Source of the DNA: a virus
Length of the DNA: 64,000 nucleotides
Virus record (IMG/VR): IMGVR_UViG_3300045988_098930
Reading direction: 5' to 3' (one strand)
Positions within the stretch are counted from its first letter, which is position 1; each line of letters opens with the position of its first letter. Positions 5,732 through 64,000 of this stretch are shown piece after piece. Both the position numbers and the translations under genes were made by a program. A model generated the notes under the pieces. It was given only the letters and a program-made list of their open reading frames with translations, had not been told where the DNA came from and made no database searches.

Positions 5732-6191
5732 GAAGCTGATGGGCCGTGGTGTTGCACCGCAGGTCCTACAACGGGCAGCAGAGCGTTTTGTGAATATGGC
5801 AGAATTGGCAGCTAATAACGCTATACCGACAACCGGTAGTATTACAGCGGAGGCAAGTGCGGTCAAGATAGATGGTACTACTGCTATGTTTACAGTCGAT
5901 TATGACCACGATACTGCTATGCGTGATAGCTTTTTACCAGACCATAAAAATCCGTATTATTCGAGCGGTCAGGCTGATTTGCTATATTTGTTCAACAATG
6001 GATGGGAGTATGACGATGCAAACGCGCCGTATGGAGAGTGGCGTGGTATGCGCGTTCGCGCCGTTTCGGCTCGTGCAGGATCGCATTTTGTGCAAAAGGT
6101 GGCCGACTTGATGGAGAAGGCTGTGCCGGGATGCACTGTACAAATTAACCCCGCTTACGGAGTGCGTGAACGAGGGGGTGAGCAAGAATGA
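5682..6191 (+). CDS. hypothetical protein (upstream of tape measure)
   Basis: ATG 5682 after GGTGGTG; track ORF starts at GTG 5673. Stop overlaps the tape measure start. Confidence 0.5.
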   Translation: MKPLEERLAEYLKKNPKKLMGRGVAPQVLQRAAERFVNMAELAANNAIPTTGSITAEASAVKIDGTTAMFTVDYDHDTAMRDSFLPDHKNPYYSSGQADLLYLFNNGWEYDDANAPYGEWRGMRVRAVSARAGSHFVQKVADLMEKAVPGCTVQINPAYGVRERGGEQE

Positions 6192-12280: not shown

Positions 12281-13063
12281 TTGGCCTATGAAGGGCTGCA
12301 ATTTATATATGACGGTATCCCCTCTCAGCGTTACGGTCTCATGTTTGCGTTCTTTGATTCTGCCGACTATAAGCACGCCGGAGGTTCAGAGAATAGTCTT
12401 ACCATAGATAAGGCGACACGCTCTCAGCGCCACACTCTATTGTCTGTCTCTCCTGATGATCCGTTGGAGTATGATATTGAAGTAGTGGCACTCAAGCCGT
12501 TGCAACCTTATGAGGTAAACGCCGTACACGCATGGCTGTGTGGGCAATTAGGCTTTAAAAAGTTGGTGATTCAAGCTCCTGAATATGCTGGTATGCACTT
12601 CAATTGTGTATTTAATGAGCCTGATGACTATTACATTAAAGCCGGTACAAACGGATTTAACTTGACAATGACCTGCGATGCCGGTGGCGCATGGAGCGAT
12701 GCTAAGACAGTAACCTTCACGCCTACTGACGGCGGTACTATAACAGTCAACAATCGTTCTGCCAGCTATGATTATCTCTACCCTACTGTTGAATTCACAC
12801 TTGACGGCGGCACGGAGTTTTCTATTATCAACACGACCGATAGTGTGACCCGTGAGTTTAAGTTTACGGAATTGGCTGACGGTGAAACAATAACGGTTAA
12901 TGGGCGTACTGGCGAGGTTATGTCCTCATTAAGCACAATTCGCATCAACAATTTTAACGCGCATTTTTTGCGGTTGGTACACGGTTTAAACACGTTAAAA
13001 TGCACCGGCAAGGTCTCTAACTTAAAACTGACATACGAAAATTTTATACGGATAGGAGGGTAA
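12281..13063 (+). CDS. distal tail protein (Dit)-like
   Basis: TTG start (frame closed by TGA at 12272) after GGTGGTGA. N-terminus FIYDGIPSQRYGLMF resembles siphovirus tail-component N-termini. Sits after the TMP. Confidence 0.55.
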   Translation: MAYEGLQFIYDGIPSQRYGLMFAFFDSADYKHAGGSENSLTIDKATRSQRHTLLSVSPDDPLEYDIEVVALKPLQPYEVNAVHAWLCGQLGFKKLVIQAPEYAGMHFNCVFNEPDDYYIKAGTNGFNLTMTCDAGGAWSDAKTVTFTPTDGGTITVNNRSASYDYLYPTVEFTLDGGTEFSIINTTDSVTREFKFTELADGETITVNGRTGEVMSSLSTIRINNFNAHFLRLVHGLNTLKCTGKVSNLKLTYENFIRIGG

Positions 13064-13067
13064 AAGT

Positions 13068-16001
13068 ATGCTGTTTAGCTTTGATAAGTTTGACCGCTAT
13101 GAGATACCCGTCCTGACCGTGGCGCACCCCGATTTCACTAAAGTGGGGATTATCAAAGACCCTATCGGGTTAAAACTTGACCTGAATTTGGTATCTACCT
13201 CTAAAGCGTCGTTTGAAGCGTATTCAGTAGATGATACTGGCAATGCCACCTTTTATTATGGTGCGTTGACCAAGTATAATCTCGTGCATATTAGCGGCTT
13301 CGGTTGGTTCGTAATCACCAATGTTGATGAAAGTAATGATGGTATTCATAAGAGCAAGTCGGTGGACTGTGAATCTTACGAGTATACGTTAGGGCGCAAA
13401 GCGGCGAACCTAAGTGCAGGCACATATCGTCTGTATGATCCTGCCAACGCCGCCAGCACTGAGACTTTGCTTGGACATTTTCTGGCGAATTGCCCTCGTT
13501 GGACGATAGGCTATGTGAGCAGTGCGCTGTATAGCCGGTATCGGACCTTTGATATGCCTGATGCGTCTATGTACGGCTTTCTAATGGAAGAAGCGATGGA
13601 CGCTTATGAGTGTGTATTTGTCTTTGACACGGAGAATTTGCAGATCAAGGTCTATGCGCCTGATGATTTGATTAAGGATTCGGGGATTGTATTCCGATAC
13701 ACCTCACTTTTAAAGCATATCTCAATATCTGATTCCGCAGACGATGTGGTAACGGAACTGCAAGTGTATGGCGCAGACGATTTTAGTATTGCTACTGTTA
13801 ATCCGCTTGGCACTGCCAGTATTTACAAGTATGACTATTTTAAAGATGTCATGCCTGCGGCTATGTGGGTCAAGGTTAAGCAATGGCAGGATGATGTTGC
13901 GGCGGCTATGGGGCGTACTTCCGCTTATGGCAATATACTGACCGCTATAAAAAATGAGAATCTAAAGATACTCGGTTATGAAGCGAATAAGTCTGAAGTG
14001 GAACGGTATCGAGCGGCTGGTGAACAGGTCCGCACTGTTAATACGCCGTATACGATGCAGGCCGTTTCGCAGACTGCTGTGGATAATATACGGGCATGGA
14101 TAGATAGCAAAAGCAGCACTGACCTGTTGACAATGGTAACTGCCGCCGATGCTTACCCTCCTATTCCTACGTTTGTGCCTGCCGGTGGCGAGGGTGTTGT
14201 ACCAAGCGAGATACAAGCGTATGCTGATACGATAACAGAAGCAGACCGTAATGTGGCACAGGCAACGGTGAATATTTATGCCTGCGAAAAGTGTATCCAG
14301 TATTGTGATAGTCTCATTGAACAGAGCAAGGCGCAAATTGCCGTCCATCAAGAGCAACGTCAGGCTGCATCTGCGGGGTTGGCTTTATCTAACTACCTGA
14401 CTGCCGCTGAAATAACTGCTTTAGGTGATTACACTTTGGCTGACGTGTATGAGAACACATACATTGTGCCGTTGGACAACGCGACCTATGAGGACACACA
14501 AAATCTGGCCTTTGAACTGCTGGACGGTGCATTAGAGGTGTTGGACCGTGTATCTCAGCCTGCCTTTGAGTTTAGTGTGGATAGCGTCAACTTGATGTTT
14601 GATAAAGAGCATGAAGCATACATCAATAACATTGAACAAAAGGGTTTAGGTTGTCAAGTCCATATTGAGTTTGAGGACGGCAACTGGTACAATCCGGTGT
14701 TGATGGGTATTGGTGTTGAGTATGACCACCCTGATAAATGTTCACTGGTATTTGGTAGCAATTATCACGCTCGAATGAGCGAGGATTTGTATGCTGAGTG
14801 CTTCCAGAACGCTGCTAAAACGTCCTCTACGGTCAGCAGTGCATTGCATAGCTGGCTCAATCCTATGCAGTCGCAGAGTCTCAGTCCTATGCGTGAATTT
14901 ATCGAAGGTACATTGAGTGCGACGGCGAATAAGATTATCAATGCCAGTAATCAGTCTACGGTTATAGACCAGTTTGGTATCTGGGGCCGTAAGGCCACAG
15001 AAGACGGATACAGCCCTAAACAGCTTAAAATTATCAATAACGGTATGTTTATGACTGATGATAATTGGGATACGTGTAAGCTGGCTATTGGCGAGATAGA
15101 GATACCGGGGACGGCTGATACGGCGTATGGGGTGGCGTCCGAATTGCTGGTGGGTAATCTGATATTGGGCGAAGCCATGAAGATTATCAATGCCAATAAT
15201 ACGTTCACCATAGACGAAAACGGTATGAATCTAACTACTTCAGACGGATTAAAGAAGATATATATGGACCCGTCTGATGGGTTTAAGATTCAAGGTAGAG
15301 CTAATACTTCTGCGGAATTTGCGGATAAACTATATCTGGATTCGGAAGGTAATGCTATATTAAAGGACATTACGGCTATTGGTGGTACATTTACAGGAAG
15401 CGTATTGGCTGGTGCTGGTGTAATGGGCGGGTTCTACTCTCAAGACAGTATACATAAAATTCTCGGCAATTTGACCATCGAAGGAGATTTGACCATTAAG
15501 GGCAAATACCCCGCCTCCCCTGTTACTCCTGCGGGAGCTGGCATTCAATCTGGTAGTAATGGATATATAGTAACCGCCCCTCAAGCGAACCAATTTGGTA
15601 CGATGTCTGTTGAAACATTGCGTGTAACTGATGGATCGGGCAATTATTGGAATTTGCTACAAAATGGATCGTGGTCTACTGGCACTGGTGGCGGTGGCAC
15701 AGGTGGATCGGGCAGTGGAGTTACATATAACATTATTCGCTATACGAATCCTAATGCAACCATTTATTTTCATCCTCAAGCTTCACCTACGCCCAGAAAT
15801 GGCGTTATGCAGGTGTATCAATGGTATGTTTATATTGAGATAACAACCAATTCACATGGATCGTGGTATTTGCTTTCGCAAACGTGTACTTATAATAATG
15901 GTCGCGTAACTCCTAATGCCTCTCTATCTAATTTTGGGTGGGTCAACTTAGACCCTACTTTGTCTACCGTAGAAGTGCGAACCAACCAACCGGGAGCGTA
16001 A
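13068..16001 (+). CDS. tail-associated (Tal-like) large structural protein
   Basis: 977 aa, immediately after the Dit-like gene. Gly-rich linker GTGGGGTGGSGSG near the C-terminus. Confidence 0.55.
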   Translation: MLFSFDKFDRYEIPVLTVAHPDFTKVGIIKDPIGLKLDLNLVSTSKASFEAYSVDDTGNATFYYGALTKYNLVHISGFGWFVITNVDESNDGIHKSKSVDCESYEYTLGRKAANLSAGTYRLYDPANAASTETLLGHFLANCPRWTIGYVSSALYSRYRTFDMPDASMYGFLMEEAMDAYECVFVFDTENLQIKVYAPDDLIKDSGIVFRYTSLLKHISISDSADDVVTELQVYGADDFSIATVNPLGTASIYKYDYFKDVMPAAMWVKVKQWQDDVAAAMGRTSAYGNILTAIKNENLKILGYEANKSEVERYRAAGEQVRTVNTPYTMQAVSQTAVDNIRAWIDSKSSTDLLTMVTAADAYPPIPTFVPAGGEGVVPSEIQAYADTITEADRNVAQATVNIYACEKCIQYCDSLIEQSKAQIAVHQEQRQAASAGLALSNYLTAAEITALGDYTLADVYENTYIVPLDNATYEDTQNLAFELLDGALEVLDRVSQPAFEFSVDSVNLMFDKEHEAYINNIEQKGLGCQVHIEFEDGNWYNPVLMGIGVEYDHPDKCSLVFGSNYHARMSEDLYAECFQNAAKTSSTVSSALHSWLNPMQSQSLSPMREFIEGTLSATANKIINASNQSTVIDQFGIWGRKATEDGYSPKQLKIINNGMFMTDDNWDTCKLAIGEIEIPGTADTAYGVASELLVGNLILGEAMKIINANNTFTIDENGMNLTTSDGLKKIYMDPSDGFKIQGRANTSAEFADKLYLDSEGNAILKDITAIGGTFTGSVLAGAGVMGGFYSQDSIHKILGNLTIEGDLTIKGKYPASPVTPAGAGIQSGSNGYIVTAPQANQFGTMSVETLRVTDGSGNYWNLLQNGSWSTGTGGGGTGGSGSGVTYNIIRYTNPNATIYFHPQASPTPRNGVMQVYQWYVYIEITTNSHGSWYLLSQTCTYNNGRVTPNASLSNFGWVNLDPTLSTVEVRTNQPGA

Positions 16002-19978: not shown

Positions 19979-20343
19979 TACCTATGCTACGAAGGAGGCT
20001 GATGAGCAACATGGCAAAGGCGAAAAATATAGCAACGGGAACGATAGATGCGGGAAATTCCCATTTGACAACAATATCAATATCTGCTCAAACAGGCTTT
20101 AGACCCGACCATGTTGCGGTGTTTATAGCGTCAGAGAGGGCGGAATCAGCATTACAATTTCATGTTTTGAGTACATACGATGGCAACGTATTATGTTTTG
20201 ACATGGATACATGGTATATGAACGCATCATCCGTTCAGTTTACTGTGAACGACAGCGGGTTCACGATTGCAAACGTTAAGGTCGGCTCGGATAATCAAGT
20301 TTACTTTACCGGCACTTACCGCTATGTAGCATGGCAAGAATAA
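19975..20343 (+). CDS. hypothetical fibre-module protein with MIPMLRRRLM N-terminus
   Basis: ATGA overlap with the upstream stop, in frame with track ORF 19948..20343. Confidence 0.5.
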   Translation: MIPMLRRRLMSNMAKAKNIATGTIDAGNSHLTTISISAQTGFRPDHVAVFIASERAESALQFHVLSTYDGNVLCFDMDTWYMNASSVQFTVNDSGFTIANVKVGSDNQVYFTGTYRYVAWQE

Positions 20344-20417
20344 AAAGGAGCATACTATGTGTAAAATAATTCTATCGGGGGGGGCAGCCTCCGTAAAATA
20401 AAAAGCGCCTACGCGCT

Positions 20418-21311
20418 ATGATACCATTGCAGTTTGCCTTACGGCGCAGAATGATGATGGCAGGGGGAGGCTTACTGCCAAGTGGATTTACCCTCCTTGC
20501 GTGGATAAAAGGCACAGGTACACAGTACATTGATACCGGGTTTGTGGTTAATAAGTCCGATAACTATGTGTTAGAAATAGACGGGTTATTTCCTTCGCAG
20601 GCGCAGGTGTATCAAGGTTGCAATGGCTATATGCAGTTTTTCACCAGTAGTAAATATGGTATAAGTGGCGATAGCTCTGTTGCAGTTGGTAATCGTAATA
20701 CCGTGCGCGTAGAGTACGCTAATCAAACTGAAAAACTCTTTGTAGACGGAGCACAAATAGAGAGTAAACTGTGGTCAGCATACAATGGTTCTAATGTAAA
20801 ACTTGCATTATTACGCATGGGCGATGCCAACAACGGGTGGTACAATGGGGCAGCAGCTCAAGGTACGATATACGGTTATAAGGTGTGGAAGAACAATATC
20901 CTTGTTTCGGAATGTGTACCTTGTATACGTAATAGCGATGGTGCTGCCGGAGTGTATGATGTTATCCGAGAACAGTTTATTACTCCTGTCAACGGTGTGT
21001 TTTTGACTCCTGATGGCGTCACTTATACGGTTACTACGAACTATATACCGGTTGCCGGACTTGTAACAGTAAACGGTTTAGATCTTCCGGTTAGTAACTC
21101 AACCACAATTTACGCCGTTCCTTCCGGTGTGACAATCATTCTCCGTGCTCGTAGCGAGAGCACAAGCCAACTGGATATAACCGTGGATGACGTGGTTGTA
21201 GCAAGCGCATCACCGTTTCAGAGTGTCAGCTATACGTATGCCGTTACTAAAAACTGCACTGTACACGTATCCAATTCGGCAGCCGGCCAACGCTCATGGA
21301 TAACAACGTAA
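20418..21311 (+). CDS. hypothetical fibre-module protein with MIPLQFALRRRMMM N-terminus
   Basis: 297-aa ORF. The N-terminal Arg-rich motif is shared with 19975 and 22466. Confidence 0.5.
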   Translation: MIPLQFALRRRMMMAGGGLLPSGFTLLAWIKGTGTQYIDTGFVVNKSDNYVLEIDGLFPSQAQVYQGCNGYMQFFTSSKYGISGDSSVAVGNRNTVRVEYANQTEKLFVDGAQIESKLWSAYNGSNVKLALLRMGDANNGWYNGAAAQGTIYGYKVWKNNILVSECVPCIRNSDGAAGVYDVIREQFITPVNGVFLTPDGVTYTVTTNYIPVAGLVTVNGLDLPVSNSTTIYAVPSGVTIILRARSESTSQLDITVDDVVVASASPFQSVSYTYAVTKNCTVHVSNSAAGQRSWITT

Positions 21312-48999: not shown

Positions 49000-49083
49000 T
49001 GGTGCTCAAGGCGGGATTTGAACCCGCAAGGCTTTTGCCGACAGATTTTAAGTCTGTTGTGTATGCCGTTCCACCACTTGAGC
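49000..49083 (-). tRNA. tRNA-Leu (anticodon UAA)
   Basis: Manual cloverleaf. Acceptor GCTCAAG/CTTGAGC. Anticodon arm ACAGA-CTTAAAA-TCTGT. Long variable arm GGC-AAAA-GCC. T arm CGGG-TTCAAAT-CCCG. Encoded CCA. Confidence 0.85.
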
Positions 49084-49164: not shown

Positions 49165-49240
49165 TGGCTGAGGTGGCAGGATTTGAACCTGCGTGTGTCA
49201 GAGTCAAAGTCTGATGCCTTTACCACTTGGCGACACCTCA
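49165..49240 (-). tRNA. tRNA-Gln (anticodon UUG)
   Basis: Manual cloverleaf, 76 nt. Acceptor TGAGGTG/CACCTCA (U1-A72). Anticodon arm TCAGA-CTTTGAC-TCTGA. T arm GCAGG-TTCAAAT-CCTGC. Encoded CCA. Confidence 0.85.
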
Positions 49241-50364
49241 ATGCAATGGGCGGTTTGCACCGCCCTAAATTGTTGTTTGATATTGCATATACTACGATAT
49301 GCGTGAAAGCGGTGAGCATGGCCTGCCCACGAATCAACCGACACCCGAATGTCGTCTAAACTCATTCGACCCGCCGCTAACCATCGAGCGAACTTCTTTA
49401 ACTTGCGCCGCATAGTTGTCACTGATAGCGGACTGAGTTTTCGCCACACACCGCCATGTTTGTTTAAAACATACAACCCCTTTAAGAAAGTCACACCGTT
49501 ACTCAGTTTGGCAATCTGCGTCTTTTTAGGGTTTAACTTAATTCCCAACTTATCACATTCGGCTTGCAACTGATATAAACACAAAGTTAAATACTGTTTA
49601 CTTGGATGAATCATATACCCATCATCCATATATCGCGCATAATATTTGATGCCCAACTTTTCTTTCACAAAATGGTCGATACGATTAGGGAGTGCTAAGG
49701 CACATATCTGTGAGACTTGACTGCCCAGCCCTAATCCTTGATCACCAAATTGTTTGATAAAATATTCGGTTTGCCGAAGCACATCTTGATCTGTGATACA
49801 ACGGCGTAACTCCTGAAATACCGCCGCATGATTGGCAGAGTCAAAGTATTTAGAAAAGTCAAACGTGAGTACATAACCTTCATTTGTACCATACTTATTA
49901 TAGTATTGATGTAAATGTTTGACAAGGCGTTGCATCGAAAAGTCAATTCCCTTGCCTTTGAGAGATGCCCCGTTATCGTAAATGAAGGTACTACTAAGAA
50001 GTGGTATCAAAGCATAATCGCACAGACAACGTTGAATTACCCTTTCCGAAATATGAACACTGCGGATATGTCGCGGTTTGCCGCGTTCAATCAAATCAAA
50101 TTCTACAAACCCCTTACTGCGATATGTTCCGTTTAATAGGCGTTGCCTATCGCAGTAGATATTGTCCAGCGCATTAGCCTTATACTCCTGCACGCTGCAC
50201 TTCCAGCCTACGCCCTTGCGCGACGCCTTCCATGCTTTGTATAAGTGCTCCATTGAGAAAATCTCATTAAAGTTACCGACAGCCGCATTGCGCTTGGCGC
50301 GTTGTGCTTCTCGGTATTGTTTGCGGCGTTGATACCGCAGTTCATGCCGTTCTTCACTTGTCAT
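49204..50364 (-). CDS. DGR reverse transcriptase
   Basis: ATG 50364 after GAAGGA. RT motifs LTFDFSKYFDS, LGLGSQVSQ, ARYMDDGYM. Lies next to the TR. The last 12 codons and the stop lie inside tRNA-Gln. Confidence 0.9.
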   Translation of the reverse strand: MTSEERHELRYQRRKQYREAQRAKRNAAVGNFNEIFSMEHLYKAWKASRKGVGWKCSVQEYKANALDNIYCDRQRLLNGTYRSKGFVEFDLIERGKPRHIRSVHISERVIQRCLCDYALIPLLSSTFIYDNGASLKGKGIDFSMQRLVKHLHQYYNKYGTNEGYVLTFDFSKYFDSANHAAVFQELRRCITDQDVLRQTEYFIKQFGDQGLGLGSQVSQICALALPNRIDHFVKEKLGIKYYARYMDDGYMIHPSKQYLTLCLYQLQAECDKLGIKLNPKKTQIAKLSNGVTFLKGLYVLNKHGGVWRKLSPLSVTTMRRKLKKFARWLAAGRMSLDDIRVSVDSWAGHAHRFHAYRSICNIKQQFRAVQTAHCIEVSPSGKGIRL

Positions 50365-50571
50365 AAAAATCCTTCGTATGGCTATAACGTGTTGCAGCCA
50401 CATAGTTGCGACCATGAAAACAGAGAGAGCACGTATCATCTGTCCATGCAAGCAGCGTCCGGTCGCTTTCATCAAAGAATCACATTTACCCTTACAGGAA
50501 GGTCTTAGGCTCCTTCTATTTGTTGTACTGAGTTCGCTTCTAAAAGAAGTTAATACGTCGGACATGAAATG

Positions 50572-50699
50572 GAATCCCAGCGCCACGCCATTCGAGTTAT
50601 TGGCATTGTCATTGTTCGCGCTCCCAGATGTGTTAACCATACAGAAGTTGTTGGAGTTATTGACATTCGCGGAGCGTAGCCAAACATTACAAGCGGAGC
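50572..50699 (-). repeat. DGR template repeat (TR)
   Basis: 128 bp collinear with 51255-51382. AAY-rich (reads ..NVWLRSANVNNSNNFCMVNTSGSANNDNANNSNGVALGF). Differences from the VR fall at TR adenines. Confidence 0.85.
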
Positions 50700-50730
50700 A
50701 AATGCTATACAGCCTAAAACCTAAACACAA

Positions 50731-51153
50731 TTATGAGGAAGTCTTGCCAGCTTTTAGTTTAAGGAAACGCGCTTTGTCGGTTTTCTTAACACCTTGAATC
50801 AATTCCATTTCCTTGTGGATCATAGCTATCCATGCTTCTTCGGCGTTTAAAGAGATAATGCAATCTTCGTAAGCTAAAGTAATTTCATCATATAGATTTT
50901 GCAGGCATTGATACGCCTTGTTCAAATAACGGGTGCGCTCATCAAGCTGGGCTTGGTTGTTTACATATACACCATTAGCGGCACGCACATAATTGCAGCA
51001 ATGCGCCGCTAATTCGTTGATTCTGGCCCCGCCATAAAATGTGCGACGTTTAGGAAATTTTAACGCCTTAGCACGGCTATACCGCCACAAATCCATGGCA
51101 GTATCTAAAAACTGTACATTACTTTTCTTACGTTTGCTTGCATATACCGACAT
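50731..51153 (-). CDS. avd: DGR accessory variability determinant (Avd)-like protein
   Basis: 140 aa, basic and helical. Canonical position between the target and the TR. Confidence 0.65.
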   Translation of the reverse strand: MSVYASKRKKSNVQFLDTAMDLWRYSRAKALKFPKRRTFYGGARINELAAHCCNYVRAANGVYVNNQAQLDERTRYLNKAYQCLQNLYDEITLAYEDCIISLNAEEAWIAMIHKEMELIQGVKKTDKARFLKLKAGKTSS

Positions 51154-51187
51154 TGTTTGTTCCTTTCATATTTTCGCCTGCCGTTGC

Positions 51188-51237
51188 TTCCCCTAACGGG
51201 GAAGTCAACGGGGGATTAAGGCGCTTTGCAAGCGCCT
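51188..51237 (-). promoter_or_regulatory. two GC-rich hairpins immediately downstream of the VR (candidate DGR target-recognition structure)
   Basis: AGGCGCTT-GCA-AAGCGCCT (51219-51237) and TTCCCC-GTTA-GGGGAA (51188-51203) on the - strand. Absent after the TR. Confidence 0.45.
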
Positions 51238-51245
51238 ATTTCCGA

Positions 51246-52160
51246 TTAAATACAGAAGCCCAGCGCCACGCCATACGAGTTACTGGCAATGTCACGGTTC
51301 GCGCTCCCAGATGCGTTAACCACACAGAAGGAGTAGGAGTTAACGACATACGCGGACCGTAGCCAAACATAACAAGCGGAGCCGTTCTGTGTAAAGATGT
51401 TGCTACTCCGAGTGTACTTGACACCCTCTTGCGTGCCGGAGTAAGAAGTTACACCCAGAATTTCATACTCAGACCCCGGCCACAGCCTATCTGATGTAGG
51501 ATTTGCGCCCTTATTATTTACCTTATTAACAGCCTTAATGCCGTTCGTTGCCTGTAATTCTGCGGGCAACAAAGTGAGATATGAAGGTACAGTCGTAGAA
51601 CGCATCCGAGACGCACCCCAGCCACCCTCATTTGTGTTGCTACTATTCATCTGAGCGCTGGCAGAAAAGCACTGCTTCATAAAGAAGGTTGCCGCAGCCT
51701 TACCGCCTGTGCCGCCGCCATCAGTACGAGCATCGGTACGTACACCGCATAATTCAACCGCAACAGTTTCAGAACCAAACGTCACATTCTTGGCCGCTTT
51801 AAGTGTAAACCCATTGAAATTCGTTATCAATTCACCGCTATTACATATAGAAATGATTTGTTCCCACGTCAACGCCGAGAACGGACTATTGGTACTGAAT
51901 AACTGCCACACACCCGCCACTCCGATATAGGCGTTGCAATACACCCATGTCGAACCGTTATACTGCATTGTGAGTCCGGGAGTCAGAGTTAAATTTTGTT
52001 TACCGGCCACATTAAGCTGATAGCCGCCACCATCTACTGTATGCACCCACAAATCGCCATTAGCGGGTTCAGCGGGCTTGACATAAGAAAAATAAATCGT
52101 TTCAGGCGTAGTAGCAGTTAATACTACTACCTGACCATCAACGACTGCGCTGGGGAGCAA
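51246..52160 (-). CDS. DGR variable (target) protein
   Basis: The ORF as sequenced starts at TTG 52160 without an SD. The same frame is open upstream through a G12 tract. The SD+ATG at 52230 would be in frame with 11 or 14 G. The C-terminus holds the VR (..YVWLRSAYVVNSYSFCVVNASGSANRDIASNSYGVALGFCI). Confidence 0.8.
   Translation of the reverse strand: MLPSAVVDGQVVVLTATTPETIYFSYVKPAEPANGDLWVHTVDGGGYQLNVAGKQNLTLTPGLTMQYNGSTWVYCNAYIGVAGVWQLFSTNSPFSALTWEQIISICNSGELITNFNGFTLKAAKNVTFGSETVAVELCGVRTDARTDGGGTGGKAAATFFMKQCFSASAQMNSSNTNEGGWGASRMRSTTVPSYLTLLPAELQATNGIKAVNKVNNKGANPTSDRLWPGSEYEILGVTSYSGTQEGVKYTRSSNIFTQNGSACYVWLRSAYVVNSYSFCVVNASGSANRDIASNSYGVALGFCI
51255..51382 (-). repeat. DGR variable region (VR)
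   Basis: The 3' end of the target ORF. 15 mismatches to the TR at TR-adenine positions plus one synonymous C>G. Shares the A-free element GGCGTGGCGCTGGG at the 3' end. Confidence 0.85.
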
Positions 52161-52186
52161 AGAAGCTATCTGTATATCAAAGGATA

Positions 52187-52198
52187 CCCCCCCCCCCC
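52187..52198 (-). repeat. poly-G(12) homopolymer in the 5' end of the DGR target gene
   Basis: 12 consecutive C on the + strand, counted directly. Confidence 0.95.
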
Positions 52199-52238
52199 GA
52201 TTTTTTGTTACATACCATATTAAATAACATGAAATTTT

Positions 52239-52673
52239 TTAATCCTCCTTTATTTGTTCGAACGACACAGTGACCGGCATACGCCAACCGGTCTGACTGG
52301 CGTTTAATATGGCCGTTATGAAATTCTTGGCTAACATGTCTTGGACCGCAGGCTGATTAAGCTCCGCTCTAATCATAGCCGAAAAGGCCGCTTGATTATT
52401 TTCAATCATTGTGGCTATTTCCTTAGACACAGTATCTTTGATAGCATTAGTTGCCAACCACCGCAAATACGGTTGCGCCCGATATGAACTCGAAGAACAT
52501 GGTTCACCTCTTTCATTTACCGAGCTGGCGACAACCGCCCGCACAGCTTTGCGCACTAATTCAGTTTTATCGCCCAACGCATCAGCGATTGCTATGCACA
52601 CAGCGTCGCTTACATTCTTTTCTATCAGAGCCTTGTCTATTTCAATGCCCATACTCAGTTTTTCAGTTGCCAT
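52239..52673 (-). CDS. hypothetical helical protein
   Basis: 144-aa ORF directly upstream of the DGR target. Its 3' end contains the AAGGAGG used by ATG 52230. Confidence 0.5.
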   Translation of the reverse strand: MATEKLSMGIEIDKALIEKNVSDAVCIAIADALGDKTELVRKAVRAVVASSVNERGEPCSSSSYRAQPYLRWLATNAIKDTVSKEIATMIENNQAAFSAMIRAELNQPAVQDMLAKNFITAILNASQTGWRMPVTVSFEQIKED

Positions 52674-52689
52674 TCCTCATCACCTCCTT

Positions 52690-53466
52690 TTAAAACGAAT
52701 AATCGTTTATCCATGACTCTATCCACAAACGCGCATCCTCCTTCTCCATGAAAAAATGAATACCGGTAGAACATTCGTTCCATCTGTTTGTATCATAATC
52801 GTCAACTTGAAGTGTTTGCCCAATTGTATACATAAAAGCATAATTATATATACTATGGATCGGCACTGCATCGGGAAGCTGTTGACCATTAGACAAGGTG
52901 TAAGCATCTAATACTATCGCCTTATTGCATCGGCATTTTCGAGTAGTTGCGCTACTTCTGTACGCATCGGCTGGAATTTCAAGTGTGACCAATACGGGGC
53001 ATATATGCAGATCTGGATCATAGCACCATGCCCCCTTGTACCCAATAAAGCTGCCGTTCATGGGACATTGAGGACGATAATAAAGCGTCTTATCATTAAC
53101 AATCGCAGTCTCTAAGCCACAGCAAAGAATAAATTTGCAAGTATACAAATTCGCATGGCACAAATTTACTTCTTGCAAATCACAGTGTACAAAGCTAACA
53201 CACCTCGCTAATGTACATCCTGTGAACACCGCCTTAGTGAAATTACACGCTACAAAATCACACTTGATAAAAACACAATCAATGAATTGCACATAACGCA
53301 AATCTTGATGGGAGGCGTTTATCTTGTTTATCACACAATTCCGCAATACTAATTGCTGGCCTTGACCGTTCTGCTCTATCCACAACCGATGCTGGCGCAC
53401 ACACTCTTCAAATTGAGCGACATCTATTACGACCATATATTCTCTCCTTACGCTACTAAAGTACAC
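52690..53466 (-). CDS. pentapeptide-repeat protein with C-terminal GIHFF-motif domain
   Basis: Runs such as NCVINKINASHQDLRYVQFIDCVFIKCDFVACNFTKAVFTGCTLARC fit A(D/N)LXX repeats. C-terminal ...CSTGIHFFMEKEDA. Confidence 0.65.
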   Translation of the reverse strand: MYFSSVRREYMVVIDVAQFEECVRQHRLWIEQNGQGQQLVLRNCVINKINASHQDLRYVQFIDCVFIKCDFVACNFTKAVFTGCTLARCVSFVHCDLQEVNLCHANLYTCKFILCCGLETAIVNDKTLYYRPQCPMNGSFIGYKGAWCYDPDLHICPVLVTLEIPADAYRSSATTRKCRCNKAIVLDAYTLSNGQQLPDAVPIHSIYNYAFMYTIGQTLQVDDYDTNRWNECSTGIHFFMEKEDARLWIESWINDYSF

Positions 53467-54743
53467 ACCTTATCCTTAACGTGCAAAGCAAGCGGAACGA
53501 GTTCGCCAATCATTTCCTTTATATAATCATTATCACCAGCTTCAGCATTAAGATTTAAGGTTTTAGAATTAAGATAAGTTTCCAATTCGGATTTGGTCGT
53601 ACACAAGAACTTTTTAAGCCCACCCATAGTATATGACGGCATAACAGGTTCGGCAAGGGGTGTCGGCTCTTGTTGCGCCAGTTCCCTTTCCAGCCGCTTG
53701 TTCTCGGCTCGAAGATTAGTCAATTCCCGCATTTGCTCAGAAGTCAAAGCATTGTCCTCCAACGCTTCTGTTTGCTCTAACAACTCTTGAATATACCCGT
53801 TAGCCTCATTGATCTTCTGTTGCGAATCCTGCAACTTGCACTTCAGATTATAATTTTCGCTGTTAGCCTTCTGGTAGTTCTCGTAAGCCCGTCTACAATC
53901 TTCTTGTAGTTTATCTATTTTGGCAACCAGTTCAGGATCACCCTTCTGTTTAAGCTCAGTAATACGGTCATCCAGTTCGTTATTCTTCGCCACAATCAAA
54001 TTAAGCCTATTGGCAAGCGACGCATTAGTACCTTGCCATTGCTTTTCCTTTTGCTCCATTTCAACTTGCTGTTGCCGTATCTGACACAAATATTTGTCAG
54101 TGAGCTTGGCTGTGATACGCTCCTTCACCGGCAGAGCATTATAAAGCTGCTCCTGCTCGTCCTCTGATAGCTTGCCTATGATACGTGAAGCGACGCTGGC
54201 AGATACATTGCCGGAATCCAACAGCTCTTGCCAATCTGGGATAAGATCGGACAAAGATTTGAATTGCCTATACGAAGCATAATCAATACCGGCAGCTTTG
54301 CAAGCCTCCTCTGCTGTCACAGGTTCACCCGAAGTTGTTACATTGTCACAACTTTTATGTTTACCACCTCCATCTACCTTATATATACGCCGCAGCTCAT
54401 CCACCCGATGTACTGCTTTCAGCTCACTGCCGCCTATATTGCCTCTCTGCCGCACATTGGTTTCTATCAAATCCTTGATGACCCAATCTTCAGCACACCT
54501 ACCATCGTGGTTGTCATAGTGCCTAACCTCACCAAGTATGGTGACAATTCCCAATTCCCTGCAAGCCCGCACTCGCTGGTGGCCGGACACAATAATTAAG
54601 TCCTGCGTAACCACAATAGGTTCAATAACCCCACTGGTTTTGATGCTTTCCTTAAATTCTTCCCATTTCTGTCCACTCATTTCATCAAAGAAATACTCGT
54701 TTTGCGGATGCGCCTGCAATTTGCTGACTTGTAATGCCTGCAT
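53448..54743 (-). CDS. ParB-like nuclease-domain protein with long coiled coil
   Basis: N-terminal IEPIVVTQDLIIVSGHQRVRACRELG (ParB/Srx GxxR motif). C-terminal heptad-rich region. 431 aa. Confidence 0.6.
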   Translation of the reverse strand: MQALQVSKLQAHPQNEYFFDEMSGQKWEEFKESIKTSGVIEPIVVTQDLIIVSGHQRVRACRELGIVTILGEVRHYDNHDGRCAEDWVIKDLIETNVRQRGNIGGSELKAVHRVDELRRIYKVDGGGKHKSCDNVTTSGEPVTAEEACKAAGIDYASYRQFKSLSDLIPDWQELLDSGNVSASVASRIIGKLSEDEQEQLYNALPVKERITAKLTDKYLCQIRQQQVEMEQKEKQWQGTNASLANRLNLIVAKNNELDDRITELKQKGDPELVAKIDKLQEDCRRAYENYQKANSENYNLKCKLQDSQQKINEANGYIQELLEQTEALEDNALTSEQMRELTNLRAENKRLERELAQQEPTPLAEPVMPSYTMGGLKKFLCTTKSELETYLNSKTLNLNAEAGDNDYIKEMIGELVPLALHVKDKVCTLVA

Positions 54744-56600: not shown

Positions 56601-56760
56601 TCCTCACAGCTAAAGCCGGAGGATTCTCGGTTCAACCACCACCGCCTGCATCTGCGAGGTCTTACACGGTGTCCCCAAGCGTATAGGTTCGGGCATGTCC
56701 CGCCCTACCGTATATATTAGCTACGCCAGCAGGCGCAACCCTTCGTTCAAAATGTTCTTC
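56585..56760 (-). ncRNA. candidate omega (right-end) guide RNA of TnpB-1; boundaries approximate
   Basis: The region overlapping and following the tnpB 3' end shares blocks with the equivalent region of TnpB-2 (GTAAGACCTC, GGCAGGATGAGCCGAA vs GGCGGGACATGCCCGAA). Established TnpB biology places the omega RNA here. Confidence 0.35.
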
Positions 56761-58005
56761 GCGGCGTTTATATCCCGGTCGTGGACAGCACCGCACTCCG
56801 GGCACGTCCAGATGCGCACGGACAGGTCTTTCGTGCCTGACCACTGTGCGCCGCAGCAGGAACAAGTTTGGCTGGAGGGGTAGAAGCGGTCTATCGTGAC
56901 CACGGTTTTCCCATACCATTTGGCCTTGTACTGCAACTGTCTGCGGAACTCGCCCCACCCGGCGTCGGAGATGGGCTTCGCCAAACGGTGGTTTTGTACC
57001 ATGTTCTTCGGAGCCAAGTCCTCAATGCAGATGACGCCGTTGTCACGGATAAGCTGGGTGGACAGTTTGTGCGCTGCGTCCTGCCGCTGGTTGGCAATAT
57101 GCTCGTGAAGCCGTGCTACCTGCAATCTGGCCTTTTCCCAGCGGTTACTCCCCTTTGATTTTCGGGAGAGTTGCCGTTGGAGACGCGCCAGCTTCTTTTC
57201 AGACTTCGCAAGGTACTTGTGATTCGGATACTCTACACCATCAGAGGTAATTGCAAATGCTTTCAAACCCATGTCAATACCGACAACCGCCCCTGTAGAT
57301 GGCAACGGCTCCATATCAACATCTGTACAGCACAGGGCTACAAAATATTTTCCGCTTGGGGTCTGGCTGACGGTTGCGGACAAAATACGCCCCTCTACAG
57401 GTTTGCTGATCCGGCATTTTACCTTTCCCAGCTTGGGGAGCTGTACAGCACCTTCCAATACTTTGATATTTGCGCCCATGCACCTGCTCTTATAGCTTTG
57501 TCGATGGTTTCGTTTGCTTTTGAATTTTGGGTATCCGGGTTTCTCGCCCTTTTTGACCCGCCGAAAGAAGTTCTGATAGGCTGTATCCAAATCCCGTAGA
57601 GAAGATTGCAGGGCAGTTGCGTCAACTTCCCGTAGCCAGATGGTTTTCTCCTGTTTCTTCAGAGATGTCAGGTCTTTGTCTTGCATGAATCGTGTGGGAG
57701 ATTTTTCTGTTTCCCTGTATGCTTCTATTCGCTGCGCAAGATAGTGATTCCATACAAAACGACAACATCCAAATGTCCGGTGTATCTGTTGTGCTTGTGC
57801 GATATTAGGATAGATACGGAATTTGTAGCTATATTCCATTTCAGAACCTCACACATTTTTCTGGTGCTCTATGTACTGCTTAATGGCTGACAATAGCGCA
57901 CCGCCAACAGCAGATACACAAAAACGGTGTGGCTTATATCCCCATAGTTAAAGCAAGGGGCTTTACGCCACTTATGATAAAAACACCGGCTATTTGCCAG
58001 TGTTA
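56603..58005 (-). mobile_element. IS200/IS605-family tnpB-only (IS1341-like) element 1; ends approximate
   Basis: TnpB ORF plus about 120 nt at the 3' end and about 165 nt at the 5' end. GC visibly higher than the flanks. No tnpA. Confidence 0.35.
56721..57839 (-). CDS. tnpB: TnpB RNA-guided endonuclease (IS605 OrfB family), copy 1
   Basis: 372 aa. N-terminal [25 protein letters not shown]. RuvC residues in [24 protein letters not shown]. Zn finger CSCCG..CPECG. Confidence 0.85.
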
Positions 58006-58999: not shown

Positions 59000-59190
59000 A
59001 ATATACCATTCGCATTGGTAATTCTCAGGTACACACGCGAGGTCGATTCCTGTTTCGCAGACCGCGCCTTTCGCCGTGAGGCGGGAGGTCTTACCAGTCT
59101 CCACAGGCGTAACTTTCGGCTCATCCTGCCGTAGTAGGGTTTGCTGGTTACGCTGCGGTGCAGGTATCCTTTGCCTTTCTTAAAATATTG
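59000..59190 (-). ncRNA. candidate omega (right-end) guide RNA of TnpB-2; boundaries approximate
   Basis: Same argument as for TnpB-1. GC-rich, hairpin-prone sequence (GCCTCACGGCGAAAGGCGCGGTCTGCG) between the tnpB stop and the next gene. Confidence 0.3.
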
Positions 59191-60333
59191 ATTGCCGCGT
59201 TGATGTCGCGGTCGTGGTGTGCGCCGCACTGGGGACAGGTCCACGCACGAACCTTTTCATCCTTCACAGCGGCGTTCTTGTAGCCACAAGTGCTGCAAGT
59301 CTGGCTGCTGGGATAGAACCGGTCAATTTGGAGGCACGTGCGTCCCGCCCACAGTGACTTGTACTCCAGCATCCGGAAGAACTCAGCCCAAGAGACATCA
59401 GCCACAGCCTTCGCCTTCCGGTGGTTCTTGACCATACCCTTAATGTTGAGGTCTTCCACTGCGATGACTTGGTTCTCGTCAACGAGTTTCCGACTCAGCT
59501 TATGGGTATAGTCTCGACGCTGATTTACAACACGTTCGTGGATGGTTGCTACCTTGCGCCGCTGCTTCTCATAGTTGGAAGAGCCCTTCCGCATACGGGA
59601 CAGCTTGCGCTGTTCACGGGCCAGCCTCTTCTCACTATGGATTAAGCAGTGAGGGTTCTCATAGGTGTTGCCATCACTGTCGGCGGCAAATACATGAAGC
59701 CCAACGTCAATGCCGACCTCCGTGTTTAGCACCGGCAGCGGTTCAACTTCCTCTTTACAGAGAACGGACGCCCAATACTTACCGGTGGCACTACGGGACA
59801 CCGTGATATTTACCGGAACTCCGGTAACGGCACGTTTATCCTTACCGCGCTTTACCTTCCCAATCGAGGGAATCTGGACAAACTTCTCGGTCACAATGAC
59901 CGAGCCATCTGTGGTAAAGCTCTGCTTGGGATTCTTCCGCCCCTTAAACCTCGGATATCCCGCCTTGCCCTCGCCTTTTTTGCAACGACGGAAGAACCCG
60001 TCGTAGGCGTCGCAGAGGTGCTGTATCGTATAATTCAGGGCGTGCCGGTTGCAGCTACCCAGCCAAGGAAGATATTCCTTCATCTCCGTCAGGAGTTTCG
60101 TCATACCGTAATATGAGAGGCTTTCGCCACGGCGCTGGTATGCCTTGGACTTCCGCTCAAGGAAATGGTTCCACACGAACCGGCAGCACCGAAAGGTGTT
60201 CTCAATCGCCGCTGCCTGAGCTTCTGTGGGTTTGATGCACAACTTGTAAGCCCTATAGATTTCCAACGTTCACACTCCTTTCTGTAGAATTATTCATTTT
60301 CCTTGCATAGACCCCACACTAAAGCTGGAATAG
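59024..60333 (-). mobile_element. IS200/IS605-family tnpB-only element 2; ends approximate
   Basis: Occupies the whole intergenic space between small gene 60334-60468 and gene 58724-58927. No tnpA. Confidence 0.35.
59148..60266 (-). CDS. tnpB: TnpB RNA-guided endonuclease (IS605 OrfB family), copy 2
   Basis: 372 aa. TTG start after [41 protein letters not shown]. Roughly 40-45% identity to copy 1 by eye. Confidence 0.85.
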   Translation of the reverse strand: MEIYRAYKLCIKPTEAQAAAIENTFRCCRFVWNHFLERKSKAYQRRGESLSYYGMTKLLTEMKEYLPWLGSCNRHALNYTIQHLCDAYDGFFRRCKKGEGKAGYPRFKGRKNPKQSFTTDGSVIVTEKFVQIPSIGKVKRGKDKRAVTGVPVNITVSRSATGKYWASVLCKEEVEPLPVLNTEVGIDVGLHVFAADSDGNTYENPHCLIHSEKRLAREQRKLSRMRKGSSNYEKQRRKVATIHERVVNQRRDYTHKLSRKLVDENQVIAVEDLNIKGMVKNHRKAKAVADVSWAEFFRMLEYKSLWAGRTCLQIDRFYPSSQTCSTCGYKNAAVKDEKVRAWTCPQCGAHHDRDINAAINILRKAKDTCTAA

Positions 60334-60758: not shown

Positions 60759-61592
60759 CTATTCCTCCTCATTAAATTCTTCTCGTAATGCTTCAGCAAA
60801 CCCCCAATCATATTGATCAGCGGTTAATCCACAAATCTCGCACACTTCTTCTTTATCTATACCAATATAACACAAGGTAATCGCTTCACTGCTATGCCCT
60901 AACTCCTTACACAGCATTGACAACGCTCTGTACCCACGCTCTCGACTAAGCGCATTAGCCTGTGTGTAAAATTGATACGCATACGTTTTCCTCAGTGTGT
61001 GCGAACCATACAGCCGTGTGTCCAACCCCAATCTCTGCGCTGCTGGACGAATAATATTATCATTCAGACTCTTACGCAATATGTGGCCGGTGCTATCTTG
61101 GCTCCAAAACAAATAGTCGTTTGAACCAATTTTTAAATCCTCCACGTATCTGGCTACCATATCTGCCAGTCTGCTATCCAATTTAATCTCTCTGCCTTTA
61201 TTTGTTTTCTGTTCAATGACATATAGTGCATCGCGGGGGGAACCGTCAGCTTTGAAGAATTGGTTCGCCTTTAATTTTACCAAATCCCCAGCTCGAAGTC
61301 CAATGCTAATTCCCGTGCGGAACAACACCCCATTTCTATACGCTGTCTTTTTTCTCGGTGCGTTTAATAATGTTTGCTCAAACGCATTGATTTCCTCCAA
61401 TGTTTTCAACGGCACTTTAGTATGTTTACTTTTAGGCACATACCGTTGTTTGGTGGTGCGTGGCGTAGGTATCAAACCGAACCCGCACTGTCCGCAAAAT
61501 TTGTGGTCGCCATCATTTTCATATCCGCACTGAGGGCAAATCAAAATCCTCGACGGCGTTACAATCCGTGGTTTGAACTCTAAAACAGCCAT
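60759..61592 (-). CDS. tyrosine recombinase with N-terminal Zn ribbon
   Basis: CPQCG..CGQCG. Catalytic signature GLRAGDL (Arg), HTLRKTYA (HxxR), LGHSSEAITLCYIG (His, Tyr). 277 aa. No arm-binding domain evident. Confidence 0.75.
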   Translation of the reverse strand: MAVLEFKPRIVTPSRILICPQCGYENDGDHKFCGQCGFGLIPTPRTTKQRYVPKSKHTKVPLKTLEEINAFEQTLLNAPRKKTAYRNGVLFRTGISIGLRAGDLVKLKANQFFKADGSPRDALYVIEQKTNKGREIKLDSRLADMVARYVEDLKIGSNDYLFWSQDSTGHILRKSLNDNIIRPAAQRLGLDTRLYGSHTLRKTYAYQFYTQANALSRERGYRALSMLCKELGHSSEAITLCYIGIDKEEVCEICGLTADQYDWGFAEALREEFNEEE

Positions 61593-63802: not shown

Positions 63803-64000
63803 GTTGCAGCCGTACTAATTTACCTGCGTCAGTTCGAAAACGTTATCGCCCTTCTTGGGGGCTTCTCTGCGGAACTGAGCACAGTCTGGGTTTGTACAGA
63901 CCCAGCTCTTCCTTTTTTTTTCATTTTGAAACATCCTTCTTCCGCTTTTCATAGCAAGCTGGGCAAAGCAACGCACCGTCATCAAGTAGCATCCGCGTCC

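Follow-up and report, generated by a model that had tools for sequence, protein, structure and literature searches.

A structurally complete avd-type diversity-generating retroelement with a predicted lectin-like target in a human-gut phage

The 64,000-nucleotide (nt) sequence of the IMG/VR virus record IMGVR_UViG_3300045988_098930, the whole of which is here termed the window, harbors a diversity-generating retroelement (DGR) on its minus strand. A target gene (T1) with a variable repeat (VR) near its 3′ end is followed by avd, a template repeat (TR), a spacer RNA and a reverse transcriptase (RT) gene (Table 1), and this target-avd-TR-RT order, put forward in an original prediction made from the sequence alone, is borne out by the open reading frames (ORFs) and the repeats. 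All of the defining parts of a DGR were found at the locus, which is a genuine, structurally complete avd-type DGR of a well-known family. The DGR interpretation already advanced in the original prediction is supported by the RT, Avd, the adenine-specific TR/VR differences, an element resembling an initiation of mutagenic homing (IMH) site, a hairpin following the VR and population data.

Table 1. Coordinates of the DGR components, of the flanking genome arms and of corresponding features in related contigs (window positions unless a contig is named).
Feature	Position	Strand	Remarks
DGR RT	49204-50364	-	386 amino acids (aa); LGSQVSQ at residue 213, ARYMDDGYM at 243, YMDD at 245
DGR spacer RNA (Rfam RF03077, RT-2 RNA)	50349-50567	-	5 nt past TR; extends 15 nt into RT ORF
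TR	50572-50699	-	33 A; 13 AAY codons of 41; adenine mutation creates no stop
IMH*, TR 3′ end	50575-50589	-	same GC element as in VR at 50576-50589; A marker at 50575
avd (accessory variability determinant)	50731-51153	-	140 aa; isoelectric point 9.5
GC-rich hairpin 2	51181-51211	-	CCGTTG-A-CTTCCCC-GTTA-GGGGAAG-CAACGG; between T1 and avd
GC-rich hairpin 1	51219-51237	-	AGGCGCTT-GCA(A)-AAGCGCCT; begins 21 nt past GC element; candidate target-recognition hairpin/cruciform
T1, DGR target	51246-52230	-	ATG at 52230, stop TAA at 51246-51248; uninterrupted body ORF 51246-52160
VR	51255-51382	-	codons 260-302 of the 304-codon T1 body ORF
IMH-like element, VR 3′ end	51258-51272	-	A-free GC element GGCGTGGCGCTGGG at 51259-51272; C marker at 51258
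Coding G12 tract (oligo-Gly codons)	52187-52198	-	near T1 5′ end; candidate slipped-strand phase-variation switch
RT-2 RNA in two further DGRs	L014:8733-8956; L058:11648-11866		spacer RNA
T2 sites in relatives	L002:3963-4697; L013:11916-12620; L006:1-84	-	minus strand by window synteny; ~0.7-1.4 kb past 64000
Plus-strand arm	1-26.7 kb	+	virion protein; tape measure 6188-12109; Dit-like 12281-13063; minor tail/tip 13068-16001
Minus-strand arm, first part		-	serine integrase, NrdD; DNA polymerase, exonuclease, primase, DnaB, Sak4; tRNAs and DGR
Minus-strand arm, after DGR		-	pentapeptide/DUF5758 protein, ParB-like nuclease, two transposases of insertion sequence (IS) type, tyrosine recombinase

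Components of the retroelement and variation among its relatives

A single direct repeat of 128 nt was recovered by the repeat search, with its two copies, TR and VR, sharing 88% identity at a spacing of 683 nt. Base-by-base comparison on the minus strand revealed 16 mismatches across the 128 collinear nt, 15 of which fall on TR adenines (7 A>T, 5 A>G and 3 A>C; hypergeometric p = 1.1e-9 for the 33 adenines of the 128-nt TR). The sole non-adenine mismatch from TR to VR, a C>G, is synonymous in the target frame (CGC>CGG, Arg), and the VR codons differ from those of the TR through the replacement of N by Y, V, S, R or I, of M by V and of T by A. Under adenine mutagenesis the coding capacity of the TR amounts to approximately 10^17.6 protein variants.

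Relatives of the element were identified in public collections by means of a pattern consisting of the last 36 nt of the TR in which each A was replaced by N. It matched 13 loci in IMG/VR and 42 in metagenomes, every one of them from a human gut sample; these comprise six full-length TR variants, which differ from one another only at a few non-A sites, and 31 distinct full-length VRs. When rates were computed against the TR consensus on the 88 nt outside the search pattern, the VRs departed from the TR at 56% of the A positions, compared to 4.6% of the non-A positions (Mann-Whitney p 4e-13), and most of the non-A variation fell on sites at which the TRs also differ from one another. For contigs containing both repeats, a mean of 0.5 non-A mismatches per pair was observed between cognate TRs and VRs, as opposed to 4.0 between non-cognate ones, both at T1 and at T2, a second target present in relatives. 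The TR and VR of the window share GGTTAAC, while the relatives have GGTCAAC. As the VRs vary at TR adenines and copy the non-A alleles of their own TR, information flows from TR to VR with adenine-specific errors.

The GC element GGCGTGGCGCTGGG is identical in all VR and TR copies and is conserved also in a distant cassette, that of the metagenomic contig L058. Immediately 3′ of this element, at repeat position 125, all 45 VR copies have a C, whereas every TR has an A. Because this difference is invariant across all relatives, the A at TR 50575 and the C at VR 51258 are considered a fixed marker, rather than a product of random mutagenesis, and are consistent with a directionality marker distinguishing IMH from IMH*. 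The original prediction was accurate in its collinear 128-bp repeat pair, the bias of the mismatches towards TR adenines, the VR codon changes and the adenine-free GC element at both 3′ ends; its count of 15 adenine differences and one synonymous C>G likewise stands, with the qualification that one of the fifteen (50575/51258) is the fixed marker.

A hybrid repeat was observed in L042, a 2514-nt viral-metagenome contig, where the repeat at 807-934 has the T1 body upstream and a TR-type spacer and RT downstream, with avd missing, and combines VR-like substitutions with the TR-type A marker. Its interpretation as a mutagenised TR was rejected, as it is a VR/TR junction without avd, and it reflects either a deletion by VR x TR recombination or an assembly collapse (~2.8x coverage).

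The translated RT matches Pfam RVT_1 and PHROG 1423 (e-value: 2e-77), and its best match in the PDB is the bRT of the Bordetella phage (8ub7; e-value: 8.5e-20; ~330 residues), with group II RTs following at 2e-6 or worse. In the alignment with bRT, the IGSLTSQ/LGSQVSQ and YMDD motifs are in register. All RT relatives detected by tblastn in annotated phages are DGR RTs, including those of Roseburia phage Shimadzu (43% identity), nd12 (39%) and the Faecalibacterium phages Pioen, Roos, Taranis, Toutatis and Lelie (~33%), as well as those of Bordetella and Bacteroides phages, and the L058 RT shares 47% identity. Assignment to the group II, Drt or retron classes was rejected, given NCBIfam scores far under the cut-offs (e.g. 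62.7 versus 300 bits). Judged by its best matches and by its YxDD and [LIV]GxxxSQ motifs, the RT belongs to the DGR clade.

The last 12 codons and the stop codon of the RT ORF (37 nt) are overlapped by a tRNA-Gln(UUG) gene on the same strand (49165-49240), the sequence of which encodes the C-terminal tail of the RT (...EVSPSGKGIRL), and a tRNA-Leu(UAA) gene (49000-49083) follows. Upstream of the RT, its frame is free of stop codons across the spacer and the entire TR, as far as the first nucleotide past the avd stop (49204-50730, minus strand; 508 codons). The same upstream-open frame is found in L003 and L012, and it may be due to chance (~4% for the spacer alone) or to constraint.

The avd product matches PHROG 3206 ('Avd protein of DGR'; e-value: 2.6e-10) and shares 27% identity over its full length with the annotated Avd of Shimadzu (e-value: 1e-6) and 35% with that of L058 (e-value: 2e-22). 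No meaningful match was obtained against PDB sequences, and a fold search was used instead. The Avd model is a four-helix bundle, with 2gsc, 2rld and bAvd (4dwl; template modelling score 0.76) as structural neighbours. The RT with its ARYMDDGYM and LGSQVSQ motifs, the basic helical Avd-like ORF and the location of the cassette next to tRNA genes, which lie just downstream of the RT, had thus all been correctly recognized beforehand.

The 207-nt spacer previously noted as separating the TR from the RT is present, and can now be identified as belonging to an already described family of structured RNAs, RT-2 of Rfam, which cmscan matched over its full length (model positions 1-222 of 222; e-value: 1e-25; 109.6 bits, with a gathering score of 40). 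Folded as a single sequence, the spacer was uninformative (z 0.26), but the covariance-model match was given precedence over this result, and the spacer is taken to be structured. RT-2 was the only structured RNA detected in the covariance-model scan, which found no group II intron or retron RNA family. The covariance model also placed it at the equivalent position in the cassettes of Shimadzu, where it separates avd from the RT gene (144.9 bits), and of L058, where it follows the TR immediately (139.6 bits), and did not find it in that of Lelie, the RT of which is more distant. The shared position in three DGRs suggests that RT-2 is the spacer and priming RNA of this RT sub-clade. Among the RT-1 to RT-19 motifs described near RT genes, only RT-10 was placed in a DGR, as the TR-RT spacer of BPP-1, while other RT motifs were speculated to act in DGRs and RT-2 was left without an element type (Weinberg et al. 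2017; PMC5737381). In BPP-1 the segment past the TR binds Avd, sets a privileged site of processive synthesis and supplies the priming nucleotide (PMC6182149). Furthermore, the RNA wraps around bRT-Avd in cryo-EM structures, and Avd-binding stem-loops just past the TR were predicted in 207 of 278 avd-type DGRs (bioRxiv 2023.10.23.563531). By analogy, we infer that the RT-2 RNA serves here as the Avd-binding, priming spacer RNA.

Two GC-rich hairpins follow the VR, the DNA fold of this region being more stable than any of 200 shuffled sequences (z = -4.97). Within the window they occur only after the VR, and TRs lack them. The VRs of T2 and L058 are followed by a TAATC-type sequence and then likewise by a GC-rich hairpin (T2: stem CCCCGCCCC/GGGGCGGGG, loop GCAA; L058: stem GCCGCCCC/GGGGCGGC). 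The T1, T2 and L058 hairpins begin 21 to 28 nt past the GC element and keep their structure, while their stem sequences differ. Their stems are GC-rich and 8 to 9 bp in length, and their loops are GCAA, GTTA or TTGT rather than GRNA. The hairpin rule established for BPP-1 comprises a GC-rich stem of 7 to 10 bp, of which the structure and not the sequence matters, a 4-nt GRNA loop and a distance of 4 to 34 bp from the VR (Guo 2011; PMC3240598). Stem, size and position of the hairpins would agree with this rule, the loop excepted. The original prediction had placed hairpins after the VR copy only, which is correct (51219-51237 and ~51181-51211), and had likened them to the BPP-1 target-recognition hairpin, which holds for the stem and distance and fails for the GCAA loop. 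A promoter and terminator scan of 48.9-54.9 kb gave results at chance level, and in it the window hairpins, which lack a T tail, were not called as intrinsic terminators. In some T2 copies the stem is followed by TTTT, and there the T2 hairpin may have a terminator role.

The diversified proteins and the guanine tract of T1

The N-terminal part of T1 is rich in beta structure, and the protein ends in a DUF6273, C-type-lectin-like domain (Pfam DUF6273; e-value: 7e-8; aa 167-303 of the body). No match to T1 was found among PDB sequences at E<=10, including Mtd, a protein attached to the fibre by its N-terminal beta-prism/beta-sandwich. The AlphaFold2 model, built from an alignment of 43 sequences (pLDDT 91.7; pTM 0.89), shows its best PDB match to the IgA peptidase of T. 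ramosa (N-terminal domain, DUF6273), while among viral models it matches many gut-phage DUF6273 proteins, with entries named tail-collar fibre, receptor-binding protein and endopeptidase tail. DUF6273 has previously been equated with the C-lectin-like target domain of DGRs (PMC10743442; PMC11792537; bioRxiv 2024.10.15.618418). A C-type-lectin fold had been proposed as worth seeking at the C-terminus of the target, and structure prediction returned C-lectin-like matches at weak e-values together with the DUF6273 domain. Tentaclins have an N-terminal C-lectin domain that bears the VR, with Ig-like domains and a C-terminal anchor motif behind it (PMC10743442). T1 is not of this type, given that its VR and C-lectin-like domain are C-terminal and that the model contains no chain of immunoglobulin (Ig) domains.

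Full-length T1 homologues are 326 to 341 aa in length and start with M[IL]FN[MA]V and a Gly-rich linker, followed by VSF[DN]V..LPxAVVDGQ. In the window, the ATG at 52230 is preceded by AGGAGG, which overlaps the stop codon of the upstream ORF, and encodes MLFNMVCNKKSGGGG before the frame enters a tract of 12 guanines (G12), beyond which the T1 body resumes in the +1 frame. Since the peptide starting at 52230 and the body match the homologue layout across the tract, the G12 tract is considered coding and the T1 gene of the window frameshifted. With G12 the T1 gene measures 985 nt, whereas a G11 tract gives 984 nt and a product of 327 aa. The target ORF of the original prediction, running from 52160 or 52230 to 51246, was thus recovered; by the homologue N-termini its true start is at 52230, and 52160 delimits the body ORF only, because of the frameshift. 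A 144-aa ORF without matches (52239-52673, minus strand) ends inside the T1 ribosome-binding site, as a result of which T1 is probably co-transcribed with the upstream genes.

The G12 tract is the longest homopolymer in the window and encodes the oligo-Gly linker seen in homologues. Across the ten contigs containing it (the window and L007, L011, L012, L023, L032, L047, L060, L061 and L062) the tract is 8, 10, 11, 11, 12, 12, 12, 13, 14 and 14 nt in length, being in frame in four (G8, G11, G11 and G14) and out of frame in the other six. The in-frame copies yield exactly the N-terminus predicted from the homologues. In L011 the G14 tract is followed by a different, shorter N-terminal sequence, and L012 carries an additional indel downstream of the tract. 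The 47%-identical T1 ortholog of L058 lacks the tract and has GGA GGC instead. As the spread of 8 to 14 exceeds typical homopolymer miscalls, the tract is read as a hypermutable gate on T1 translation. We infer from these lengths that slipped-strand changes in the tract may toggle T1 between ON and OFF states atop DGR hypervariation, with the G12 copy of the window representing the OFF phase. Hypermutable polyG tracts are known from receptor-binding genes of Campylobacter phages (Sorensen 2021, as cited in PMC12823448), while literature searches returned no report of a poly-G tract in, or of phase variation of, a DGR target. The only other long G run in the window is a G8 (20377-20384, plus strand) in the intergenic region upstream of a 297-aa ORF without an assigned function (20418-21311), in the tail-distal structural arm, and could be a second variable tract.

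Alternatively, the tract lengths may be a sequencing or assembly artefact, or the tract may be bypassed through transcriptional slippage or ribosomal frameshifting, in which case T1 would be constitutive and there would be no switch. RNA polymerase is known to slip on long homopolymers, Illumina sequencing is prone to errors in long runs of G, and the out-of-frame G12 is common to three independent contigs, which would be odd if the OFF state were costly. However, a range of 8 to 14 lies far beyond the typical miscalls of one nucleotide in either direction, and all four in-frame lengths restore precisely the expected N-terminus. Furthermore, tracts of this length are hypermutable in every system studied, including the receptor-binding protein genes of Campylobacter phages, insofar as that work is cited in PMC12823448 (Sorensen 2021). 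We therefore regard an artefact or bypass as somewhat unlikely.

In many of the relatives a second VR is located at the 3′ end of the gene for a ~235-aa protein, T2 (MFENY...GVALGFCI), which shares its C-terminal domain, and not its N-terminal part, with T1. Relatives that are 97-98% identical to the window carry the T2 VR 711 nt past the point aligned to window position 64000, ~12.9 kb from the TR. No second VR was found in the window with the A>N pattern at up to 3 mismatches, and tblastn with T2 returned T1 and the TR only. As there is no second VR inside and synteny places T2 beyond 64000, the window is probably cut just short of this gene. All complete copies of T2 are intact and contain no homopolymer, and a longer variant (open frame of 252+ residues; ...FGEQLDCE...) was observed in L008, L041 and L048. 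Judged from the repeats, the same TR serves T1 and the non-adjacent T2 in these relatives, with T2 tracking the TR. Non-adjacent second targets within the same prophage are common (PMC5758913). The original prediction had called the DGR complete, which is correct in that all components are present, but the T1 gene of the window is out of frame and the T2 gene of the relatives falls outside of the window.

Genomic setting and weighing of the interpretations

The cassette and both targets are located in the replication and accessory arm, 25 to 38 kb from the tail genes and on the opposite strand, and gene annotation accordingly agrees with the earlier placement of the cassette far (~30 kb) from the fibre and receptor-binding-protein block, among early and accessory genes. 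Immediately upstream of the cassette is a gene for a pentapeptide-repeat/DUF5758 protein (52690-53466, minus strand), followed by one for a ParB-like nuclease of 431 aa, the tail of which is a long coiled coil (53448-54743, minus strand). Two copies of an IS-type transposase gene (phrog_506; 372 aa each) are present at 56721-57839 and 59148-60266 (minus strand). The second is part of a recent insertion in this genome (58797-60461), since relatives L006 and L011 have only ~170 nt there. A tyrosine recombinase is encoded at 60759-61592. In the structural arm, a PhoH-like gene (3839-5062, plus strand; e-value: 2e-77) lies between the virion-protein genes and the tape measure gene. The genes around T2 in the relatives yielded no annotation.

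The closest comparable cassettes, those of Shimadzu, Lelie and L058, directly follow tail or baseplate genes, which is the usual position. L058 shares T1 (47% identity), Avd (35%) and RT (47%) with the window, while pairwise comparison revealed no similarity between the tape measure and tail-tip proteins of the two. As L058 shares the cassette and not the tail proteins, the target-containing cassette is considered a module that has moved between unrelated backbones. A megablast of the cassette against the INPHARED phages returned no match, and scans of bacterial genomes with the TR/VR pattern and the RT protein found nothing. The L058 DGR is followed by a gene with a SocA_Panacea domain (13765-14325), a skipping-rope RNA (14645-14723) and a DUF3800-I RNA beside a DUF3800 gene (20293-20399), a region that looks like an accessory or defence-type hotspot.

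The most likely role of T1 and T2 is that of adhesins, or of accessory proteins for receptor binding, displayed on the virion. They may instead not be virion proteins at all, and act as diversified binders in or on the infected or lysogenic cell, for example in host takeover, in countering defence or in modifying the surface; such a role would account for their position in the early and accessory arm. The two target genes share their strand and genome arm with the replication, recombination, ParB-like, pentapeptide and transposase genes, neither is similar to a known tail-attachment domain, and in another phage a T1-like protein is encoded between terminase and portal. However, the orthologous L058 cassette, like those of Shimadzu and Lelie, directly follows tail or baseplate genes, and the structural neighbours of T1 include entries named for tail-collar fibres, receptor-binding proteins and endopeptidase tails. 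Furthermore, viral DGR targets in a large survey are mostly tail proteins (PMC8144416), and the T1 and T2 sequences contain no signal peptide or lipobox. A non-virion role is thus considered unlikely.

Taken as a whole, the data are best explained, with high confidence, by a human-gut phage DGR that is probably active and that rewrites the tip of a lectin-like binding protein. If the element functions as BPP-1 does, the transcript comprising the 3′ end of avd, the TR and the RT-2 RNA would fold around the RT-Avd complex, the spacer RNA would bind Avd and cis-prime cDNA synthesis, and adenines would be misread. The resulting cDNA would then replace the VR, with its entry set by the GC-rich IMH (C at 51258 versus A in the TR) and aided by the hairpin 21 nt downstream, potentially giving rise to up to ~10^17 variants of the ligand-binding surface.

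Several observations weigh against this interpretation. The DGR is very probably functional at the level of the lineage, a conclusion that derives from comparison between genomes and thus tells less of this particular genome, in which T1 is frameshifted and the non-A change (C>G) in the VR could reflect drift after the most recent homing event. The loop of hairpin 1 reads GCAA and that of hairpin 2 GTTA, as opposed to the GRNA consensus, which is sequence-critical in BPP-1 (PMC3240598). Matches of the T1 model to solved C-type lectins are weak (E 0.3-3), although lectins dominate the list, with Mtd falling outside of the top 50 PDB fold matches and TvpA not among the top hits. T1 and T2, presumed to be displayed on the virion, both lie among non-structural genes. 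Finally, homopolymers can be miscalled in short-read assemblies, and the poly-G variation could be partly technical.

The element could furthermore be a relic, once active and now decaying in this genome, with the frameshift and the non-A mismatch marking pseudogenisation and the VR differences being historical. In line with this, 6/10 contigs, the window among them, have T1 out of frame, the C>G mismatch is unique to the VR of the window, and in cultures of published relatives, Lelie and CP11 for example, the reads revealed no variation in the VR (PMC11792537). Decay is however at odds with the intact and conserved state of the RT, Avd, TR, RT-2 RNA, IMH and hairpins, with the occurrence of 31 distinct VRs among genomes that are otherwise 97-98% identical, and with VRs that bear the non-A alleles of their own TR. 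In addition, 4/10 contigs carry in-frame tracts, there are no other lesions in T1, and T2 is intact in all complete copies. A relic is consequently very improbable. An RT of a different class (group II intron, retron or Drt/Abi defence), with the repeat an ordinary duplication or gene-conversion tract, has next to no probability, as the NCBIfam group II, Drt and retron matches that might suggest it are weak and far below threshold (62.7 versus 300 bits, etc.), bRT leads the solved matches by 14 orders of magnitude, RT-2 is found instead of any group II or retron RNA, and the mismatches are adenine-restricted (p 1e-9).

Beyond the active DGR proposed here, a layered arrangement can be put forward tentatively, and at somewhat less than even probability, in which the poly-G tract switches T1 while the DGR rewrites it, the tract-free T2 is constitutively on, and the whole functions as a portable module outside of the tail block. 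Gut-phage DGRs that act on DUF6273 C-lectin-like proteins, often two per TR, are already known. The additions made here are modest, namely a portable cassette located outside of its canonical position, the assignment of RT-2 to a DGR spacer and a candidate homopolymer switch on one of the targets. The locus is one more well-supported gut-phage DGR among tens of thousands and leaves the overall picture unchanged. For RT-2, an orphan family of Rfam, the locus provides a concrete setting, namely the TR-RT spacer in a sub-clade of DGRs, and this RNA may serve as a second model, besides that of BPP-1, for RT-Avd recruitment and cDNA priming. The movement of cassette and target between unrelated backbones, and their presence in a non-structural arm, bear on how DGR targets are expressed and incorporated. 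A homopolymer switch gating a hypervariable adhesin, if true, would constitute a testable bet-hedging design joining two host-range mechanisms that have so far been treated separately.

Comparison with known systems

The DGR of BPP-1 (mtd-avd-TR-brt) resembles that of the window in its gene order, an RT (bRT) with which that of the window can be aligned, the four-helix bundle of Avd and the adenine-specific TR>VR differences, as well as in the GC-rich IMH with its IMH* variant, the GC-rich hairpin after the VR and the structured RNA in the TR-RT spacer. It differs in that T1 is a DUF6273 protein without sequence similarity to Mtd, that the spacer of the window is RT-2, whereas that of BPP-1 is RT-10, and that the hairpin loop is GCAA rather than GAAA/GRNA. 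Furthermore, the cassette of the window is located away from the tail-fibre genes, and the second, non-adjacent target and the poly-G tract within a target belong to the present system.

Two-target DUF6273 DGRs have already been published for Faecalibacterium phages (Toutatisvirus/Lelie and CP11) and for the gut phages nd4/nd12, with the non-adjacent target of Toutatis located 17.5 kb away (PMC11792537; PMC10743442; bioRxiv 2024.10.15.618418). Like the element described here, these have one TR, a larger and a smaller DUF6273 target, C-terminal VRs and adenine-restricted variation across cognate genomes, and both T1 and T2 resemble the published 'tgt2' type, which contains DUF6273 only. However, the RTs of the Faecalibacterium and nd DGRs share only ~33-39% identity with that of the window, there is no nucleotide similarity, and their cassettes are found in a tail-integrase hotspot, whereas the cassette and targets of the window are in the replication and accessory arm. 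The tentaclin-type target of these phages, with an N-terminal C-type lectin domain and Ig domains, has no counterpart here, and a poly-G tract is unreported there.

The closest annotated RT is that of Shimadzu (43% identity), the DGR of which also has a homologous Avd and an RT-2 spacer RNA, and is reported, as cited in PMC11792537, to diversify two proteins. Its target, in contrast, is a 431-aa tail fibre encoded directly after the baseplate genes in a myovirus-like tail module; T1 is unrelated to this fibre in its N-terminal part and is located elsewhere in the genome.

For the poly-G tract, the parallel is provided by the polyG genes of Campylobacter phages (Sorensen et al. 2021, Cell Rep 35:109214), in which, as far as that work is quoted, a long G run in a putative host-binding gene likewise toggles the reading frame through its length. 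Those genes belong to another phage group and host and are not DGR targets, and the switching proposed here derives from variation between contigs. Finally, the RT-2 RNA of the window lies past the TR and before the RT, as does RT-10 in BPP-1, and a motif that was listed without an element type by Weinberg et al. (2017) is here found as the TR-RT spacer of three DGRs.

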